Positions 19,409 through 28,898 of a stretch of DNA of 64,000 bases are shown one piece after another. The position numbers were made by a program, and so were the translations under genes. Within the stretch, counting starts at the first letter, position 1. Every line of letters starts with the position of its first letter. The notes under the pieces were generated by a model. That model worked only from the letters and a program-made list of their open reading frames with translations, was not told where the DNA came from and did no database searches. Origin of the DNA: Thermoleophilia bacterium (GTDB lineage: Bacteria > Actinomycetota > Thermoleophilia > Gaiellales > SKUG01); assembly GCA_025964555.1 (NCBI GenBank), contig JAOPYQ010000027.1:111462-175461 (forward strand). The letters are read 5' to 3'.

Positions 19409-21763
19409 TCAGACCGCGTCGGCGTGCTCGGCGCGGTGGGCGTGCGCTCCGACGGCGTTGGGCTCGAGCGCGCGCTCGATCACCTCGTGCAGCTGCAGGG
19501 ATGGCTGGAACGTCATCACGTCGCGCACCTCCTGCGGCACGTCGGCGAGGTCGGCCCGGTTGCGTTCGGGAAGCACGACCTCGGTGAGGCCGGCAGCGTG
19601 CGCCGCGAGCACCTTCTGCTTGAGCCCGCCGATCGGCAGCACCTTGCCCTGGAGCGTCAGCTCACCCGTCATCCCGAGCGTGTGGCGCACGGGGCGGCCG
19701 GTCAGCAGCGACACGAGCGCGGTCGCCATCGTGATGCCGGCGCTCGGGCCATCCTTGGGAATGGCTCCCGCCGGCACGTGCAGGTGGAAGGTGCGTCCCT
19801 CGAACGCGGACTGGTCGATGCCGAAGCTGTCGGCGTTCGCGCGCACGTGGCTCAGTGCGATGCGCGCGCTCTCGCGCATGACGTCGCCGAGCTGGCCGGT
19901 GAGCACGAGCTCGCCACCGCTCGAGCCGGAGGACGGCATCGACGTCGCCTCGACGAAGAGCACGTCCCCGCCGGTGCCGGTGACTGCGAGGCCGGTCGCG
20001 ACGCCAGGCACTGCGGTGCGCTCGGCGCTCTCATGCCAGACCCGTCGCTTGCCCAGTGCCGCGCGTGCGGCATCGGGGTCGACGACGATCGTCGACGTGT
20101 CGTCCTCGGTGTCAGTCGAGCCGGCGCCGACCACGCGCGTCGCGGTCTTGCGGGCGACGGTCGCGAGCGCGCGGTCGAGCTGGCGGACGCCGCCCTCACG
20201 CGTGTACTCGTCGATGATCGCGCGCACGGCCTCGTCGACCAGCGTGACCTCGCCCTCGCGCAGTCCTGCCCGGTCACGCTGGCGTGGCCAGAGGTGGCGC
20301 GAACCGATCGCGACCTTCTCCTCGGTCGTGTAGCCGTCGAAGGGGATGACCTCCATGCGGTCGAGCAGCGGGCCGGGGATCTGTTCGGCGACGTTCGCCG
20401 TCGCGATGAAGAACACGCCGGACAGGTCGAGGTCGACATCCAGGTAGTGGTCACGGAACGTGTGGTTCTGGGCCGGGTCGAGCACCTCGAGCAGGGCGCT
20501 CGAGGGATCGCCGCGCCAGTCCGCGCCGACCTTGTCGACCTCGTCGAGCAGGATCACCGGGTTCATCGTGCCGGCATCGCGCAAGGCCCGGACGAGTCGA
20601 CCGGGAAGCGCGCCGACGTACGTGCGTCGGTGGCCGCGAATCTCCGCCTCGTCGCGCATGCCACCGAGTGACATGCGGACGAACTTGCGTCCGAGTGCGT
20701 GGGCGATCGACTCGCCGATCGACGTCTTGCCGGTGCCGGGAGGTCCGACGAGCGTGAGGATCGCGCCGGAACGCGGGTCGGCTTCGATCTCGCGCTCGAT
20801 GCGCAGCTTGCGCACGGACAGGTGCTCGATGATGCGGTCCTTCACGTCGTCGAGGCCCGCGTGCTCGTCGTCGAGCACCTCGCGCGCGCGAGTCACGTCG
20901 AGCTCGTCCACGGTGCGCTCGCCCCATGGCACGTCGAGCAGCCAGTCGAGGTAGGTGCGGATGGTCTGCGCTTCCATCCCGCCGTCGCCCATGCGATCGA
21001 GGCGGCCGAGCTCGCGCTCGAACTGCTCGCGCACTGCGTCGGGCATGCCGGAGGCATCGAGCTTGGTGCGGTACTCGTCGATGACGGACGCGTCGTCGTC
21101 GCCCAGCTCCTTGCGGATCGAGTCCATCTGCTTGCGCAGGAAGAAGTCGCGCTGCTGCTTCTGGGTCTCGTCCTGGATGTTGTCGCGCACGCGGCGTCGT
21201 ACCTGCAGCTCCGCGAGGACCTCGCGCTGCAGCTCGAGCGCGAGGGCGAGGCGCTCCTCGACGTCGAGCTTCTCGAGGATCTGGACCTTCTGCTCGTGTC
21301 GCAGGTCGGGCGAGTAGCCGGCGGTGTCGGCGAGCGTGCCGGCGTCGGTGATCGCGCGCACGAACTGGCTCACGCGATCGTCGATGCCACGGATCTCGAT
21401 GATCTCCTCGACGATCGCCCGATACTCGCGCTCGGCCTCGGCGGTGCGTGCGCGGGGCGGGTTCTCGTCGGGGTGGGGTTCGACCGGCACGTAGAGGCGC
21501 CCATCGATGCCGGTGGTGGCGACGCCCGGCACGCCGCGATCTCCGCCGGTGACGACGGCGGCGCGACCGCCGCGGGGCAGGCGACCGACCTCGGTGACGT
21601 CGGCGATCACGCCGACGTTCGCGTACACGCCATCGTCGTCGCGCGGCACGAGCAGCACTCGGTCGCCGACGGACACGTCGACGTCGAGGGGCAGCGAGAT
21701 CGTCATGTCCGGGAAGACGACCGTGTCGTCGACGGGGACCAGGAGCAGCAGTTCGTGAGACAT
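19409..21763 (-). CDS. lon: ATP-dependent Lon protease
   Basis: Starts at MSHELLLLVPV (ATG 21763). Walker A GPPGTGKTS; catalytic serine motif PKDGPSAGITM. The listed 1524-aa ORF extends another 740 Arg-rich codons upstream, which I reject. Confidence 0.95.
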   Translation of the reverse strand: MSHELLLLVPVDDTVVFPDMTISLPLDVDVSVGDRVLLVPRDDDGVYANVGVIADVTEVGRLPRGGRAAVVTGGDRGVPGVATTGIDGRLYVPVEPHPDENPPRARTAEAEREYRAIVEEIIEIRGIDDRVSQFVRAITDAGTLADTAGYSPDLRHEQKVQILEKLDVEERLALALELQREVLAELQVRRRVRDNIQDETQKQQRDFFLRKQMDSIRKELGDDDASVIDEYRTKLDASGMPDAVREQFERELGRLDRMGDGGMEAQTIRTYLDWLLDVPWGERTVDELDVTRAREVLDDEHAGLDDVKDRIIEHLSVRKLRIEREIEADPRSGAILTLVGPPGTGKTSIGESIAHALGRKFVRMSLGGMRDEAEIRGHRRTYVGALPGRLVRALRDAGTMNPVILLDEVDKVGADWRGDPSSALLEVLDPAQNHTFRDHYLDVDLDLSGVFFIATANVAEQIPGPLLDRMEVIPFDGYTTEEKVAIGSRHLWPRQRDRAGLREGEVTLVDEAVRAIIDEYTREGGVRQLDRALATVARKTATRVVGAGSTDTEDDTSTIVVDPDAARAALGKRRVWHESAERTAVPGVATGLAVTGTGGDVLFVEATSMPSSGSSGGELVLTGQLGDVMRESARIALSHVRANADSFGIDQSAFEGRTFHLHVPAGAIPKDGPSAGITMATALVSLLTGRPVRHTLGMTGELTLQGKVLPIGGLKQKVLAAHAAGLTEVVLPERNRADLADVPQEVRDVMTFQPSLQLHEVIERALEPNAVGAHAHRAEHADAV

Positions 21764-21780
21764 GTCGGAATCCTCAGGTC

Positions 21781-21804
21781 TGGCACTCTCCGAAACGAGT
21801 GCCA
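21781..21804 (-). promoter_or_regulatory. Perfect 8-bp-arm inverted repeat in the lon leader (TGGCACTC-N8-GAGTGCCA)
   Basis: Read directly. Lies 18-41 nt upstream of the lon ATG, just before a GAGGA Shine-Dalgarno-like element. Could be an operator or a 5'-UTR hairpin. Confidence 0.3.
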
Positions 21805-21946
21805 ACTGCGAGTACCGTACGCCCGTTTCCTTGCGCTCGCAACTACATGCCCGTTTTAGCGGGGCCGTGCCCGAAAACGACGTCGCCATCAGGGGTGCCC
21901 AGGGCGGATCGGTCGCCCCTGGCGAGCTGGGCGCGGTCGTCTGGTG

Positions 21947-22049
21947 ACTGTCGCAGCCTGCCTCCACATGCTGGTGGCAGGTTGCCGCGGTCGATTCGCG
22001 TCGGCGAACTGTCGCATCCCGCCTCCACATGTTGGTGGTGCGCTGCCGC
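21947..22049. repeat. Two 42-bp direct repeats (35/42 identical) spaced 61 bp start-to-start, in the lon / dtxR-MCO divergent intergenic region
   Basis: Copy A 21947-21988: actgtcgcagcctgcctccacatgctggtggcaggttgccgc. Copy B 22008-22049: actgtcgcatcccgcctccacatgttggtggtgcgctgccgc. Shared core: GCCTCCACATGyTGGTGG. Confidence 0.6.
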
Positions 22050-22132
22050 AGCTTGGCCGCAGTTGGGCCACAGTGGGAGGTCGTTGGGTTGGTGCTCGCC
22101 CCAGGTATAAATATTTCGGCGGCCTTGCGCCA

Positions 22133-22154
22133 GAGTTTCGTCATGGCTAAACTC
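22133..22154 (+). promoter_or_regulatory. Palindrome GAGTTT-N10-AAACTC ending 5 bp before the dtxR-MCO start; candidate autoregulatory operator
   Basis: Read directly. An unusually AT-rich box, ggtataaatatttc, lies ~20 bp upstream at about 22103-22117 in an otherwise GC-rich intergenic region. Confidence 0.35.
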
Positions 22155-22159
22155 CGGTT

Positions 22160-23953
22160 ATGGCGACCCATCTCTCTGCATTGCGGAATGGCGTAGCTCC
22201 TCGGTCGGTTGCGGTCGAGGACTATGTGAAGTGCATCTGGACCCTCGAGGAATCCGGTGAGGAGCCCACGGGGAGCGCGATCGCGGCCAAGCTCGAGGTC
22301 TCGCCCGCGTCGGTCACCGGCATGGGTCGCAAGCTCGTCCAGCTCGGACTGGTCGAGCAGGAGCCCTACCGTCCGTGGCGCCTGACGGCCAGTGGTCGAC
22401 TGCTGGCACTCGAGATCGTTCGCCACCACCGCCTGCTCGAGCTGTTCCTCGCCCGCTCGCTCGGGATGGGCTGGGACCGCATCCACGCCGAGGCGGAAGT
22501 GCTCGAGCACCACATCAGCGAGGAGCTCGAGGAGCTCATCGCGACGGCGCTCGGCGACCCCGAGTTCGACCCGCACGGTCACCCGATCCCGACGCGCGAC
22601 GGCACGATGCCGACCCGGCGCATGCGATCGATCCTCGACGTGCCCGCGGGCGACGTCGCCACGATCGTCCAGGTGCGCGGCGAGACGCCCGAACTGCTGC
22701 GCTACCTGGACGAGCACGGCCTGCTCGTCGGCACGGCGGTGACCGTGGTCGCGCACGAGCCGGTCGCCGGAACCACGTCGGTTCGCGTGCGCGGCGAGGA
22801 CCCGCTCGTGGTGATGGGCAACGACCTCGCATCGCGCATCGATGTCGACGGCGACCCGCACCCGGCTGCCGGTGACCGACCGGCGTCGGAGCGCTCCGCC
22901 GCCGAGCGGCTCGCGGCCGATCCTGCCGAGCGCGGCTCGGTGGAGGCGCGCATCATCGCGGTCGGCGCGGCAACCATCGCGCTGCTCGTGGCCGCACTCG
23001 CGGCAGTGCTGTTCGTGCAGGGCGCACCCGACGGCGAGCGCCGCATCCTCGCGGCCGACGCGCACGCCGCGATGCACGGCGACGGCTCGTCGGAGGATGC
23101 GCGCTCGGCGATGATCGGCGAGCAGGTCCCCGCGCCGGGCGGCCCGCACGACACCGACGACATCCTCTACCCACCGCCCGCCCAGCCCTACGAGCCGGGT
23201 CGGGTGCGCGAATTCACGCTCGACGTCGAGGAGACGATGCTCGAAGTCGCACCCGGACTGAAATTCCCGGCGTGGACGTTCAACGGCAGCGCCCCCGGAC
23301 CCGTGCTGCGCGTGACCGAGGGCGACCGCGTGCGCATCACGCTGCGCAACAAGAGCACCCAGCCGCACACGCTGCACAGCCACGGCATCCACACGTCCGA
23401 CCAGGACGGCGTGTTCGAGATCGTCGCGCCCGGCGAGGAGCACGTGTACGAATTCACCGCCGGACCCGCTGGCGTGATGCCGTACCACTGCCACGTCATG
23501 CCGCTCAAGAAGCACATCGGCAAGGGCCTCTACGGCACGATCATCATCGACCCGAAGGTGCCGCGACCCAAGGCGAAGGAGCTGACGATGGTCATGAACG
23601 CCTTCGACACCGACTACGACGGCGAGAACGAGGTCTACGCCGTCAACGGCAAGGCCTTCTACTACGCCAAGTACCCGATCAAGGTGAAGCGCGGCGAGCT
23701 GGTCCGGATCTTCCTGACCAACATGACCGAGAACGATCCGATCAACTCGTTCCACCTGCACGGCAATTTCTTCACCTACTGGCCGGTGACGTTCGACAAC
23801 CCCAGCCTGTACACCGACGTGGTGTCGCAGATCCAGGGTGACCGAGGCATCATCGAGGCGCGATTCCCCTCCACGGGCGAGTACATGTTCCACGCGCACC
23901 AGACCGAGTTCGGCGACCTCGGCTGGATGGGATTCTTCGAGGTGGTCGCATGA
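22160..23953 (+). CDS. Fusion protein: DtxR/MntR-family metalloregulator (wHTH + metal/dimerisation + FeoA/SH3-like domain) - linker - one TM helix - two-domain multicopper oxidase
   Basis: Single uninterrupted 597-aa ORF. N-terminal part: EDYVKCIW, RHHRLLELFL, HAEAEVLEHHIS, DPHGHPIP, then an SH3-like segment (aa ~155-228). Hydrophobic helix ARIIAVGAATIALLVAALAAVLFV (aa ~263-286). C-terminal part carries copper motifs HTLHSH (403-408), YHCH...H (442-452), FHLHG (531-535) and FHAH (577-580). Confidence 0.85.
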   Translation: MATHLSALRNGVAPRSVAVEDYVKCIWTLEESGEEPTGSAIAAKLEVSPASVTGMGRKLVQLGLVEQEPYRPWRLTASGRLLALEIVRHHRLLELFLARSLGMGWDRIHAEAEVLEHHISEELEELIATALGDPEFDPHGHPIPTRDGTMPTRRMRSILDVPAGDVATIVQVRGETPELLRYLDEHGLLVGTAVTVVAHEPVAGTTSVRVRGEDPLVVMGNDLASRIDVDGDPHPAAGDRPASERSAAERLAADPAERGSVEARIIAVGAATIALLVAALAAVLFVQGAPDGERRILAADAHAAMHGDGSSEDARSAMIGEQVPAPGGPHDTDDILYPPPAQPYEPGRVREFTLDVEETMLEVAPGLKFPAWTFNGSAPGPVLRVTEGDRVRITLRNKSTQPHTLHSHGIHTSDQDGVFEIVAPGEEHVYEFTAGPAGVMPYHCHVMPLKKHIGKGLYGTIIIDPKVPRPKAKELTMVMNAFDTDYDGENEVYAVNGKAFYYAKYPIKVKRGELVRIFLTNMTENDPINSFHLHGNFFTYWPVTFDNPSLYTDVVSQIQGDRGIIEARFPSTGEYMFHAHQTEFGDLGWMGFFEVVA

Positions 23954-25182
23954 GCAGCATCGATACCGACGTGTCAGTCGCACCGGTCGAGGCCGGCAGC
24001 CGCATCGCCTCGATCGGCGTCGCGGTCATGCCGATCGTGGTGCTCGTGGCGATCGTCGCCGCGGTCCTCGCCGGCGGCGACAGGATCCTCGGGGGCTTCG
24101 GACACAACCCACCACCGGCCGACGAGGTCGTCGTCGATCGCGTGCACTTCGTGGACGGCCACATCGAGGTGTCGATCACGAACCCGCAGAGCGACCCGAT
24201 CACGCCTGCGGTCGTGTACGTCGACTCGGCGATCGCGTACGGCGTGGAGGGCCTCGGCGAGGAGCTCGGGCGCCACGACGACGCGACGCTCGTCATCCCG
24301 TACCCGTGGATCCAGGACGATCCGTACACGATCGACATCACCTCTTCGAGCGGCATCACCACGACCGTGGACGTGCCCGCGGCGGTGCCGGCGGCGCGTG
24401 TGGATGCGGGTGGCCTCGGCTGGGGCGCGCTCATCGGCATCCTCGTCGGCGTCGTGCCGGTCGCGCTCGGACTCGCGTGGCTGCCCGCGATGCGACGGCT
24501 GCGCCCGTCGATCGTGGCGGGATTCGTCGCCTTCACCGGTGGCCTGCTGCTGTTCCTGGCGATCGATGCGACTGCGGAGGCCTTCGACGTGCAGGCGCGT
24601 GTGCTGCCCGCGTTCGGGGGTGCCGGCCTCATCGCGATGGGGATCGTCGCGAGCATGGTGGCCATCTCGTTGCTCGGACGCTGGCTGCGGCACGGCGTGG
24701 TGGAGGACGATCGTGACGCGACGTCGACCGCGATGACGCTGGCGTTGCTCGTCGCGGTCGGCATCGGCGTGCACAACCTCGGCGAGGGGCTCGCGATCGG
24801 CTCGAGCTTCTCGCTCGGCGAGGGGTCGCTTGCGGTGTCGCTCATCGTGGGCTTCATGGTGCACAACCTCACCGAGGGCATCGGCATCGCTGCGCCGATC
24901 GCCTCGGCGCGCGGATCGCTTCGCGCGTGGCCGGCGATCGGGCTCGCGCTCGTCGCCGGCGTTCCGGCGGTGGCGGGGATCTGGCTCGGCCGCTACGTCG
25001 AGGGCAACCTGTTCGCAGCGCTCTGCTTCTCGATCGCGGCAGGTGCTGCGCTGCAGGTGGTCGTCGAGGTCTCGAAGTTCGTGCGGCGCGCGCCGGGTGG
25101 CGGATTCACCGCGCCGGGCGTGCAGGCCGGATTCGCGCTCGGGATGGTCGCGATGTGGCTGACCGGCTCGCTCGCCGGCTGA
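23950..25182 (+). CDS. ZIP-family divalent metal permease with an extra N-terminal TM helix and a ~120-aa extracytoplasmic domain
   Basis: ZIP signature helices HNLGEGLAIG and HNLTEGIGIA. Start overlaps the upstream stop (ATGA at 23950-23953). Confidence 0.85.
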   Translation: MSSIDTDVSVAPVEAGSRIASIGVAVMPIVVLVAIVAAVLAGGDRILGGFGHNPPPADEVVVDRVHFVDGHIEVSITNPQSDPITPAVVYVDSAIAYGVEGLGEELGRHDDATLVIPYPWIQDDPYTIDITSSSGITTTVDVPAAVPAARVDAGGLGWGALIGILVGVVPVALGLAWLPAMRRLRPSIVAGFVAFTGGLLLFLAIDATAEAFDVQARVLPAFGGAGLIAMGIVASMVAISLLGRWLRHGVVEDDRDATSTAMTLALLVAVGIGVHNLGEGLAIGSSFSLGEGSLAVSLIVGFMVHNLTEGIGIAAPIASARGSLRAWPAIGLALVAGVPAVAGIWLGRYVEGNLFAALCFSIAAGAALQVVVEVSKFVRRAPGGGFTAPGVQAGFALGMVAMWLTGSLAG

Positions 25183-25186
25183 GGGA

Positions 25187-25807
25187 TCAGCGCTCGATGG
25201 TGTCGAGCGTGCGAAGCCACCTGACGATGTGCGGGAGACTGTCCACGAACGCGCCGGGCTCGAGCGACTCGCGGTAGCACGCTGCCTGGAGCATTCCGAG
25301 CCAGCCGAACGCGACGTAGTCGGGGTCGAGGTCCGGGTCGGTGACTCCCTGCTGCTGGCCGAGGCCGATGGCCATCCGTACCTGTTCGAGCGTCTCGTGC
25401 TCGATCGCTGCGAGCAGGGCCCGAACCGCCTGCTTGTCCACGGTCACCGCGATCCGTCGCAGCTGGTGCAGCTCGAGGAACTCCGGCTCGTGGATCATCC
25501 GCTCGAGGTACTGCGCAGACTGCTGCACGATGTCGTTGCCAGCCGTCGCGTACTCGTCGTAGAGGCGGCGAACCCGATCCATCGAATCCTGGAGCGACTG
25601 CATGAACAGGTCGAGCTTTCCGGCGAAGTGCTTGTAGAGCATCGGCTCGCTGCATCCGGCGACCCGCGCGATGCTCGCCGTGCTGGCGCCGTAGTAGCCG
25701 ACGCGGGCGAACTCCGAGCGCGCTGCACGGAGGATCCCCTTGCGCCGCTCGTCCCCGGTCAGGCGGGGGCGGGGCGGGTCATACTCGGTGAGTGCGGGTT
25801 CGCGCAT
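25187..25807 (-). CDS. TetR-family transcriptional regulator
   Basis: Starts at MREPALTEY (ATG 25807). HTH ASTASIARVAGCSEPMLYKHF. The upstream part of the listed 373-aa ORF is rejected. Confidence 0.9.
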   Translation of the reverse strand: MREPALTEYDPPRPRLTGDERRKGILRAARSEFARVGYYGASTASIARVAGCSEPMLYKHFAGKLDLFMQSLQDSMDRVRRLYDEYATAGNDIVQQSAQYLERMIHEPEFLELHQLRRIAVTVDKQAVRALLAAIEHETLEQVRMAIGLGQQQGVTDPDLDPDYVAFGWLGMLQAACYRESLEPGAFVDSLPHIVRWLRTLDTIER

Positions 25808-27820: not shown

Positions 27821-27959
27821 TCCACAGAGGCGGCCACGCCGTGGCCGGGAACGGGATCGCGTCGATTCACGCGGGCCTCCGCGCGGGCGCCCGCGAGGGC
27901 GCACGAGCTCGTGCGGCATGCATTGCCGGATCCGACGATCCGTGGTTCGCTGGAGGAGC

Positions 27960-28898
27960 ATGACCTCGACCTCCGTCAGCGCGAACCCGTCACTGACCGC
28001 ACCCGCGGGTGCTGCGGTCGTGCCTGGCACCAGCGCGATCGGCACGCCGGCAGCCCCGGCCACCGGGATCATCGGCGGCGGCGCGACGCCACCCGCGGAT
28101 CCCGCGCAGCTCATCGCCCTGCTGACGACGCTGCTCACGCTCCTTCGATCGATGCCGGGCGCGCAGGGCGCGCAGGTCGGCGCAGCCAGCGTGCAGGGCG
28201 GCGGCGGCGCCGCAGCTCCGGTGCAGCCTGGCGTCTCCGGTTTCGGCCCGACCACCATGGGTGGCTTCGTGGCGCTCGGTGCGACGCAGTCCGACGGCTT
28301 CGGCAGCGCGATGGGCTCGACCGTGGGCGGCGCACTGCTCGGCGGCACGCTCGGCACGTCGACCTCGCTCTCCAACGGCTCGGTGCCCGGCTACCTGCCG
28401 TCGATCGGCTCGGTCATCGGCGGCGGCGGTTCGTTCGGCACGCCCGCACCCGATCCCAATTTCGGCACGACGACGTTCGGCGGGTTCTCCGCGATCTCGC
28501 CGACGCCCGCCCCGACCCCGAGCACCTTCGGCACCGCGCCGACCGGCGCGACCACCGTCGGTGGCGTCGCGCTCGGTACCGTGGCAGGCGCCACGGGTGG
28601 CGGTGCAGCCGCAGCTCCTGCCGCCACGCCGCAGATCGACATGCGCCGCGTGCTCGGCACGCCCCGCGCAGGCGACGTGATCGACACGATCCTCAAGCGC
28701 GCCACGCTCAGCGCGGCCGCATCGCACAGCGAGGGCCAGTACATCGTCCTCCAGGACGCGAGCGGCGCGCAGCTGCAGGCACACGTGCACGGCGCGTGGT
28801 CCTCGAACCCGACGCGCATCCTCGAAGGCATCCAGCGCGGCTTCGTCCAGGTGCACCTGCACGAGGACGGCACGCTGCACCTGCACGACGTCGTCTGA
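27960..28898 (+). CDS. Low-complexity Gly/Thr/Ala/Pro-rich protein with FG-type repeats and a ~80-aa His-rich C-terminal domain
   Basis: ATG 27960 preceded by a strong GGAGGAG. High GC3. Repeats GFG, SFGT, NFGT, TFGG and TFGT. C-terminus: QYIVLQDASGAQLQAHVHGAW...VQVHLHEDGTLHLHDVV. Confidence 0.65.
   Translation: MTSTSVSANPSLTAPAGAAVVPGTSAIGTPAAPATGIIGGGATPPADPAQLIALLTTLLTLLRSMPGAQGAQVGAASVQGGGGAAAPVQPGVSGFGPTTMGGFVALGATQSDGFGSAMGSTVGGALLGGTLGTSTSLSNGSVPGYLPSIGSVIGGGGSFGTPAPDPNFGTTTFGGFSAISPTPAPTPSTFGTAPTGATTVGGVALGTVAGATGGGAAAAPAATPQIDMRRVLGTPRAGDVIDTILKRATLSAAASHSEGQYIVLQDASGAQLQAHVHGAWSSNPTRILEGIQRGFVQVHLHEDGTLHLHDVV

Follow-up and report, generated by a model that had tools for sequence, protein, structure and literature searches.

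A manganese-type DtxR repressor gene fused in frame to a type-C two-domain multicopper oxidase gene in a Thermoleophilia bacterium

Introduction

DtxR proteins work as dimers, and to our knowledge the characterised regulators of the DtxR/MntR/IdeR type are all soluble. We describe here a gene, mntR::mco, in which a complete manganese-type DtxR/MntR repressor is followed by a spacer of 28 amino acids (28 aa), by a single helix of strong hydrophobicity and by an entire two-domain multicopper oxidase (MCO) of type C, all within one reading frame. The gene lies in a 64,000-nucleotide stretch of a Thermoleophilia bacterium genome (assembly GCA_025964555.1, contig JAOPYQ010000027.1, positions 111,462 to 175,461), to which we refer throughout as the window. 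A precedent for a repressor and an enzyme in one protein is PutA, a membrane-associated flavoenzyme of proline utilisation that is also the repressor of its own pathway.

Two-domain MCOs are trimers in which the trinuclear copper cluster is built between protomers, and type-C members are those with the type 1 (T1) copper cysteine in the N-terminal cupredoxin domain (PMC13151041). In ammonia-oxidising archaea, the genes for MCO1 and a ZIP permease form a pair for which copper uptake has been hypothesised (PMC7785015); no characterisation of an MCO-ZIP pair from bacteria was found, and a search of the literature on MntR, MCO and ZIP together returned nothing relevant. An original prediction, made from the letters of the window alone, had supposed the fused architecture to be undescribed, and we likewise found no account of a membrane-anchored or oxidase-fused DtxR regulator in the searchable literature.

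Results

Domain architecture of the fused protein

The gene starts with ATG and runs through 597 codons without an internal stop (Table 1), which is the single frame that the original prediction had described. The prediction had also recognised a full DtxR repressor and two cupredoxin-type domains, and five Pfam matches, all above their curated cut-offs, bear this out. The motifs it listed are present without exception, namely EDY (D21), RHH (H90), EAEVLEHH (E113, E116, H117) and DPHGHPIP in the repressor, and HTLHSH (H403, H406, H408), HCH (H443, C444, H445), FHLHG (H532, H534) and FHAH (H578, H580) in the oxidase. Its single strongly hydrophobic helix corresponds to the only such stretch in the open reading frame (ORF).

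Within the repressor module, the winged helix-turn-helix (PF01325, Fe_dep_repress) spans aa 19-71 (E 7.6e-12; 45.7 bits against a cut-off of 26), the dimerisation and metal-binding domain (PF02742, Fe_dep_repr_C) aa 76-145 (E 1.2e-26), and the FeoA/SH3 domain of the three-domain subgroup aa 160-229 (E 6.3e-15). The best NCBIfam match of this part is the Mn-dependent MntR model NF047407 (E 4e-54), with a score of 183.7 bits that lies under the equivalog cut-off of 350, and the nearest PDB structures are 8PVT (E 7e-42) and 5ZR4 (E 1.6e-41). In an ungapped alignment with an IdeR reference sequence, H90, E94, H109, E116 and H117 fall on the IdeR ligands H79, E83, H98, E105 and H106, and IdeR M10 and C102 are replaced by D21 and E113. 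Oxygen ligands (Asp, Glu) at those two positions are typical of Mn-responsive DtxR members, and D/N and E/D occupy the two metal-type positions in all 34 DtxR-type genes of loci L001-L046. As read from these alignments, the ligand signature of the module is of the Mn type and not of the Fe type. Its closest relatives, found by a homology search with aa 1-262, are stand-alone MntRs of 78-82% identity. The fused protein departs in size and predicted location from this family of soluble, cytoplasmic proteins of ~140-240 aa, being 597 aa long and carrying a hydrophobic helix and an exported-type enzyme at its C-terminal end.

The oxidase module comprises two cupredoxin domains (PF07732, Cu-oxidase_3, aa 357-466, E 5.1e-24; PF07731, Cu-oxidase_2, aa 485-595, E 3.5e-21). 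Its nearest structures, both annotated as multicopper oxidases and with all motifs aligned, are 3GDC (E 5e-85, end to end over aa 349-596; the entry holds three chains) and 7RAB (E 3e-78); searching on these two codes found no functional papers. They are followed among the PDB matches by copper nitrite reductases, a related group, and by two laccases of the two-domain kind, 2ZWN and 3G5W. In an alignment of fused and stand-alone homologues (A1), the T1 ligands H403, C444 and H452, all in domain 1, are invariant, as are the four HxH pairs of the trinuclear cluster (H406/H408, H443/H445, H532/H534, H578/H580) and an extra histidine, H411; the axial T1 position is L457. Because the T1 cysteine sits in the N-terminal cupredoxin domain, the enzyme is of type C by the published definition (PMC13151041), the layout that had been predicted.

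The segments between the two modules comprise a low-complexity spacer, which stand-alone MntRs do not have, the hydrophobic helix, and an N-terminal extension of the MCO in which M318, G320, A325, G327, P329 and D333 are invariant in fused and stand-alone homologues. The 19-residue Kyte-Doolittle mean peaks at 2.67 for centres at aa 274-277 and exceeds 1.6 for centres 268-283, and AlphaFold2 places a helix at 261-286 with low confidence. The N-termini of stand-alone MCOs align to aa ~257-290 of the fused protein, that is, to the hydrophobic helix, which by this alignment is the former signal or anchor sequence of the MCO; the export signal has a homologous counterpart here, but an internal one. 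Distant MCO homologues from Methylomirabilota, Kribbella and Fraserbacteria carry twin-arginine signals of the SRRxFL type, for example MSGLSRRQFLRWG, and in close stand-alone Thermoleophilia MCOs the Arg-Arg pair is gone and the N-terminal segment is long and hydrophobic. Once a signal no longer needs the twin-arginine pathway, it could plausibly serve from an internal position as a signal anchor, and such a signal may have made the N-terminal fusion tolerable. The topology predicted from the sequence places ~260 aa in the cytoplasm, one helix (aa 261-286) in the membrane and ~310 aa outside.

A full-length AlphaFold2 model built from alignment A1 (mean predicted local distance difference test score, pLDDT, 55.9; predicted template-modelling score, pTM, 0.47) was used for the secondary-structure outline only. 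A mixed alignment of 76 fused, MCO-only and MntR-only sequences (A2) was dropped from structure prediction, MAFFT having put half of each MCO under the MntR part. On the opposite strand, a 1524-aa antisense ORF (19409-23983) spans the whole fused gene and enters the Lon protease gene; only its Lon part (~19409-21800) looks real, and the remainder appears to be a stop-free antisense frame typical of DNA of 70% GC.

The fusion in independent assemblies

When the fused protein was used as the query in a homology search over 5.8 billion proteins, only two further proteins were found to span both halves. One (P0001, ~90% identity) comes from a Joint Genome Institute (JGI) metagenome and the other (P0002, 75% identity) from an NCBI Thermoleophilia metagenome-assembled genome (MAG), where its DNA is locus L001 and its label 'multicopper oxidase, type 3'; the other top matches are stand-alone MCOs of ~330-390 aa. 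Compared with the window, P0001 has a spacer shorter by 19 aa and P0002 one shorter by 14 aa; P0002 also carries a 6-aa insertion after the helix, and the frame is kept throughout. Since two independent assemblies share the fusion in frame with spacers of different lengths, the fusion is not an assembly artefact. The original prediction had proposed asking whether orthologues are fused or split: the two closest are fused in frame, and the distant ones are split. The genes around P0001 and P0002 follow the same order, with the fused gene overlapping a ZIP-like gene by 4 bp, then a TetR gene on the opposite strand and a gene of ~225 aa. The MCO parts of the fused proteins are mutual closest relatives, at 84-85% identity as against at most 73% to any stand-alone MCO.

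Ratios of nonsynonymous to synonymous substitution (dN/dS) were calculated between the window and L001 by the Nei-Gojobori method, with dS at 0.5-0.8 across regions. The lowest ratios are those of the oxidase (0.215) and of aa 1-150, which bind DNA and metal in this family (0.22); the SH3/FeoA domain (aa 151-232), the extracytoplasmic extension and the transmembrane helix have 0.45, 0.50 and 0.92, and the spacer, from only 15 alignable codons, has 1.35. The MntR and MCO domains are both under purifying selection, and the spacer evolves neutrally. Codon-position GC content is likewise coding-like in both domains and flat in the spacer.

Two broader scans added no further fusion. A phmmer search that covered all 1.84 billion cluster representatives gave no match to both halves in one protein; its limit is that a cluster with a stand-alone MCO as its representative can conceal fused members, as happens with the members of this very family. 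A scan of metagenome contigs yielded 71 loci, none above 60% identity and none fused. The search with the DtxR part (aa 1-262) failed to list P0001 and P0002 even though they are 78-93% identical over that part; word-based candidate selection can skip close relatives, so that absence from its lists is weak evidence.

Two other apparent fusions were set aside and are not used as support. P0257, an MntR-Nramp join, has a complete MntR and lacks the first part of the Nramp profile, presumably the first two transmembrane helices (by comparison with Escherichia coli MntH), and is probably a deletion or a chimera. P0242, an MCO-ZIP join, is interspersed with Arg-rich out-of-frame stretches that are probably frameshift errors. 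The C-terminal tail of P0271, likened to the spacer of the window (DRGSVS versus ERGSVE), was unconvincing at the DNA level.

Origin from an mntR-MCO-ZIP operon

We fetched and classified 117 loci, 108 of which have an MCO homologue. The closest stand-alone MCOs (L002-L005) belong to operons in the order mntR (227-235 aa), MCO and ZIP-like gene, with 4-bp ATGA overlaps at both junctions and the MCO out of frame with mntR. Of the 84 loci whose sequence extends far enough downstream, 77 have a ZIP-like gene directly 3' of the MCO gene. A DtxR-type gene adjoins the MCO gene in 59 loci; it is co-oriented and downstream in 35, co-oriented and directly upstream in 17, and divergent in 7. Where mntR is directly upstream, the two genes are split in 16 loci and fused in one, L001; mntR and MCO share a frame in five split loci, three of them from the metagenome scan. 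The 16 split loci among these 17 and the phmmer scan without a match to both halves indicate that, in this widespread operon, the fused state is rare and derived, a lineage-restricted merger of adjacent, translationally coupled genes. In the Methylomirabilota loci L006 (1673-1690) and L014 (6661-6675), a lone in-frame TAG ends mntR, and the MCO gene begins with ATG 12 and 9 nt further on, after a gap that contains a Shine-Dalgarno sequence; judging from these junctions, one point mutation of the TAG would fuse the two genes.

The module of Mn-type regulator, type-C MCO and ZIP was found in loci recorded under Actinomycetota, Methylomirabilota, Acidobacteriota, Cohnella (Bacillota), Hyphomicrobiales and Candidatus Fraserbacteria, and archaeal MCO homologues of 46-60% identity were also retrieved (L008, L035, L037). 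The ZIP gene of the window matches Pfam Zip with E 1.4e-07, below the cut-off, and NCBIfam ZupT with E 5.5e-11. The extra N-terminal anchor and the extracytoplasmic domain of ~110 aa that it encodes are conserved in the ZIP-like genes that accompany this MCO family in several phyla, at loci L001-L034 and L047-L099.

The resident mntR and its variable slot

The fused mntR is the resident mntR of its locus. Four related loci (L040-L043), whose mntR is 79-81% identical and either stands alone or precedes a ZnuA/ABC-3 Mn-type transporter (ABC, ATP-binding cassette), share with the window a backbone of a minus-strand TetR gene, a gene of ~227 aa, DUF3320, a response regulator with a histidine kinase, and a protease. 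L040-L042 have nothing in the slot between mntR and the TetR gene, and L043 has there a ZnuA-type binding protein with two ABC-3 permeases after it; a ZnuA-type gene also follows mntR directly in L044 and L045, on short contigs that stop before the TetR border. In the window, L001 and the P0001 contig, the slot content is MCO-ZIP. In the Gaiellales MAG locus L007 (6699-6782), an mntR 73% identical to the DtxR part of the window has a normal stop that overlaps (ATGA) the next gene; this gene, with a lipoprotein-type signal (LVAGC) and cut off by the contig end, probably encodes, like its counterparts in L043-L045, the binding protein for Mn ABC transport. A few genes downstream, L040 and L042 have an Nramp gene where the window has instead a 326-aa ORF (27918-28898) with no Pfam match.

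The TetR-family gene that borders the slot on the right occupies the same position in L001, the P0001 contig and L040-L043. The 227-aa protein encoded next to it has no Pfam match, and its homologues in L001 and L040-L043 are 57-60% identical; it is part of the syntenic backbone and at most a possible member of the mntR::mco system. The divergent pair formed by these two genes is kept in all close relatives. With a histidine right after the likely cleavage site and a C-terminal membrane segment, the 227-aa protein may resemble membrane-anchored copper-binding proteins with an N-terminal His.

Promoter, operator and translation starts

A probable promoter precedes the fused gene, its -10-like element sitting 6 nt before the ATG. 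The layout cTTGCGC-17 nt-TA(A/T)A(C/T)T-5-6 nt-ATG is common to the window, L001, L004, L005 and L007, and L002 shares it with a spacing that fits an alternative TTG start. A simple sigma-70 consensus scan of 21700-25400 gave no promoter above threshold; the proposal is drawn from the conservation of the layout across loci together with known actinobacterial promoter structure, and the sequence probably represents an actinobacterial -35/-10 promoter making a leaderless mRNA. A leaderless start would also explain why the gene call of P0001 begins 38 codons late.

The palindrome that the original prediction had marked at 22133-22154 is real and matches a motif kept upstream of homologous operons, with a family consensus of about GTTTAGGCATGGCTAAAC. 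The motif has its sole match in the window at this site, as against none in shuffled sequences, and lies directly upstream of mntR or its operon in 13 other loci, where 1.2 would be expected by chance. A palindrome over a gene's own promoter is the classic arrangement for autorepression by promoter occlusion, and the site therefore predicts that the fused gene is autoregulated. Between the minus-strand Lon protease gene and the fused gene lies an imperfect 51-nt direct repeat (21938-21988 and 21999-22049; 78% identity, 61-nt spacing), each copy of which has CCTCCACATG(C/T)TGGTGG; the repeat could have a regulatory role, towards either lon or the mntR::mco operon.

The original prediction had also pointed to an internal GTG near 22939 as the possible start of a separate MCO. 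The codon exists, one base away at 22940-22942 (codon 261), and the separate product is disfavoured. The MCO gene of each of the nine split operons examined begins with ATG and has a Shine-Dalgarno pairing of -4.9 to -12.5 kcal/mol, whereas the equivalent codon of both fused loci is GTG, with a pairing of -3.3 kcal/mol in the window and -1.7 kcal/mol in L001, against a background of -3.25 ± 2.5 kcal/mol over in-frame positions of the fused ORF. The ZIP gene keeps its ATG and a pairing of -7.9 kcal/mol in both fused loci. With the internal ATG and Shine-Dalgarno sequence gone, the MCO is probably made only as a fusion, and because mntR has no stop, ribosomes must read on into the MCO in any case.

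Table 1. Positions of the features of the mntR::mco locus and its neighbours in the window
Feature	Position	Strand	Basis
Probable promoter: -35-like TTGCGC (22125-22130), 17-nt spacer, -10-like TAAACT (22148-22153)	22125..22153	+	conservation
Palindromic operator-like site GTTTCGTCATGGCTAAAC, 18 bp	22135..22152	.	family motif; overlaps promoter spacer and -10
mntR::mco fused gene, 597 aa + stop	22160..23953	+	ORF, Pfam, alignment
Mn-type DtxR/MntR module, aa 1-232, predicted cytoplasmic	22160..22855	+	Pfam, NCBIfam, PDB matches
Low-complexity spacer, aa 233-260, rich in Ala, Asp, Glu, Arg, Pro; predicted cytoplasmic	22856..22939	+	alignment
Predicted single transmembrane helix, aa 261-286, starting at internal GTG 22940	22940..23017	+	hydropathy, alignment, AlphaFold2
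N-terminal extension of MCO, aa 287-345, predicted extracytoplasmic; His/Met-rich stretch HAAMHG and motif MxGxxVxAPGxPxxTD	23018..23194	+	alignment
Type-C two-domain MCO, aa 346-597	23195..23950	+	Pfam, PDB matches, alignment A1
ZIP-family metal transporter with N-terminal anchor and ~110-aa extracytoplasmic domain	23950..25182	+	start overlaps fused-gene stop (ATGA)
TetR-family regulator, right-hand border of variable slot	25187..25807	-	Pfam TetR_N; start inferred
227-aa protein: signal peptide, His right after likely cleavage site (AFG|HG), beta-rich body, C-terminal transmembrane segment	25898..26581	+	sequence

Discussion

Our results are best explained, with a probability of roughly 0.6, by a bitopic protein (N-terminus in, C-terminus out) in which a membrane-tethered MntR autorepressor would be covalently joined to an oxidase; the membrane topology, DNA binding from the membrane, Mn specificity, lack of cleavage and role of the oxidase are parts of this reading that we infer. 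An ancestor of a small Thermoleophilia/Gaiellales-like clade would have lost the stop-start junction between the gene of an autoregulatory Mn-type DtxR repressor and the first structural gene of its operon, which encoded a secreted or signal-anchored MCO, and the old signal sequence of the MCO, now internal, would act as a signal anchor. The MCO would be made solely within the fusion polypeptide, from a probably leaderless mRNA, and the ZIP gene would stay translationally coupled. When cytoplasmic Mn(II) is sufficient, paired tethered MntR modules would bind the palindrome and repress the operon, and, by analogy with ToxR and CadC, coupled transcription, translation and membrane insertion of the operon could keep the operator close to the tethered repressor. 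When Mn is short, the operon would be derepressed, supplying the oxidase and the ZIP importer, which plausibly form an oxidase-permease pair for metal uptake.

The sequence relationships suggest that MCO-ZIP is most plausibly a metal-uptake module, probably for manganese, because it fills the same slot as the Mn ABC importer of sister genomes and because its linkage with an Mn-type regulator extends across phyla. The oxidase might act on the transported metal in a relay like that of Fet3-Ftr1, or it might instead remove competing Fe(II) or Cu(I). We consider it quite unlikely that the fusion, instead of being an accident that is tolerated, is a functioning device across the membrane in which DNA binding by MntR depends both on cytoplasmic Mn(II) and on the assembly or copper-loading of the outer oxidase trimer, such that trimerisation outside would control MntR pairing inside. 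If true, this would be the first DtxR-type regulator to couple an extracytoplasmic state to transcription, and the widespread MCO-ZIP pair, archaeal MCO1-ZIP included, would be an uptake system controlled by manganese and not by copper.

Several other explanations share part of this evidence. An assembly or sequencing artefact that joins two genes by a frameshift or lost stop in this assembly only might be suspected from the split state of most homologous operons and from garbled metagenome 'fusions' such as P0242 and P0257, but it is effectively refuted: the in-frame fusion recurs in two independent assemblies with different spacers, the split ancestors are mostly out of frame with a 4-bp overlap, so that more than one base error plus a 28-aa spacer would be needed, and the third-codon-position GC (GC3) periodicity is normal on either side of the spacer. 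The MntR part could hardly be a decaying relic, a mere appendage in a cell where another, soluble MntR regulates. The degenerate left half-site of the operator in the window would fit such decay, yet the dN/dS of the DNA-binding and metal-binding part is as low as that of the enzyme, all metal ligands are retained, the gene occupies the resident mntR position of related genomes, and no second DtxR homologue was found within the 64-kb window.

Two further alternatives concern the protein products. That the MCO is made mainly from the internal GTG at 22940, with the read-through fusion a minor by-product of the lost stop, strikes us as very unlikely. The in-frame GTG lies exactly where stand-alone MCOs begin, L001 also has GTG there, and many actinobacterial genes begin without a Shine-Dalgarno sequence; against this stand the uniform use of ATG with Shine-Dalgarno pairing in the split operons, the background-level pairing of both fused loci, a fusion that is made regardless for want of a stop codon, and a frame held open through several spacer indels. 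It is unlikely, though not far-fetched, that the polypeptide is cut after membrane insertion by signal peptidase I or another protease just past the helix, which would free a normal soluble or secreted MCO trimer and leave MntR tail-anchored, with more cleavage perhaps releasing MntR. Such cutting would suit the derivation of the helix from a signal sequence and would resolve the mismatch between dimer and trimer; stand-alone relatives have Ala-x-Ala-like motifs after the helix (SAA, STA, SNA, SSA), L001 keeps 'SAA-S', and 'V-Q-G|A' is a possible but weak site in the window. The window and P0001 have no good Ala-x-Ala site, however (FVQGAPDG, with Pro just after the best small-residue position), and a hydrophobic core of 22 residues is long for a cleaved signal peptide.

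A number of observations weigh against a tethered, uncleaved repressor-oxidase. The dimeric state of DtxR proteins and the trimeric state of two-domain MCOs impose a symmetry mismatch that has to be absorbed by flexible linkers, the charges around the helix do not clearly follow the positive-inside rule, and the AlphaFold2 model of the fused protein is of low confidence. The left half of the operator in the window differs at two positions from the family consensus, and distant Mn-regulated promoters would be hard to serve from a membrane tether. Only three fused sequences are known, so the fusion could be tolerated and not advantageous; all three are metagenomic and come from uncultured soil actinobacteria. 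In a neighbour-joining MntR tree (no bootstrap), P0002 is basal to a clade of the window/P0001 pair and stand-alone MntRs, and the stand-alone P0271-P0277 fall among fused MntRs, so that, if the fusion arose once, MCO-ZIP must have been lost or replaced afterwards. The simplest reading of this tree is a single fusion whose cargo was then exchanged in some lineages, and two independent fusions of mntR and MCO may also have occurred.

A maintained membrane-anchored DtxR joined to an exported enzyme would show that the family can regulate from the membrane, and would make a simple natural test case for operator finding by a tethered repressor, with the mismatch between dimer and trimer as a concrete structural puzzle. 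The fusion also serves as a 'Rosetta stone' for a module that is itself conserved and as yet uncharacterised, that of an Mn-type regulator with a type-C MCO and a ZIP transporter. For archaeal MCO1-ZIP, the linkage of the bacterial pair to Mn-type repressors and its exchange with Mn ABC transporters point to manganese, against the copper hypothesis (PMC7785015).

Among known systems, the N-terminal module is closest to the three-domain Mn-responsive DtxR repressors (5ZR4 and 8PVT; also SloR 5CVI, ScaR 3HRS and IdeR 1FX7), which have the same three domains in the same order, the same ligand positions, a palindrome over their own promoter and a linkage to metal-import genes. Those repressors are soluble proteins of ~215-240 aa, whereas the C-terminus of the module described here runs on into the spacer, the helix and a predicted extracytoplasmic enzyme. 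The oxidase shares with the type-C two-domain MCOs (3GDC, 7RAB and, further off, 2ZWN and 3G5W) the two cupredoxin domains, the T1 cysteine in the N-terminal domain and the eight cluster histidines; unlike two-domain MCOs with an N-terminal export signal, it has an internal signal behind a predicted cytoplasmic part of 260 aa, and its axial T1 residue is Leu. The yeast Fet3-Ftr1 and archaeal MCO1-ZIP systems resemble the locus in that an MCO gene adjoins a metal permease gene. The permease here is, however, of the ZIP type with an added N-terminal domain and not of the Ftr1/OFeT family, the bacterial pair is linked to an Mn-type regulator, unlike the copper-limitation view of the archaeal pair, and in neither system is a regulator fused to the oxidase.

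The predicted topology, with an N-terminal DNA-binding domain inside, one helix and a C-terminal domain outside, is that of the ToxR/CadC/TcpP regulators, and like them the fused protein would have to bind DNA at the membrane. The likeness is an analogy, with no common ancestry, and the fused protein, although it may work in a similar way, is not a member of that family: ToxR, CadC and TcpP combine an OmpR/PhoB-type domain with a non-enzymatic sensor outside, whereas here a DtxR-type domain would sense metal in the cytoplasm and the outer domain would be an enzyme. PutA offers a further analogy, as a repressor covalently joined, at the membrane, to an enzyme of the pathway it regulates, although PutA is peripheral, shuttles between DNA and membrane, has a ribbon-helix-helix fold, and contains neither a transmembrane segment nor an exported domain. 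The parts of the mntR::mco protein belong to well-known families and membrane-bound one-component regulation is also a known idea; it is their combination that appears to be new.

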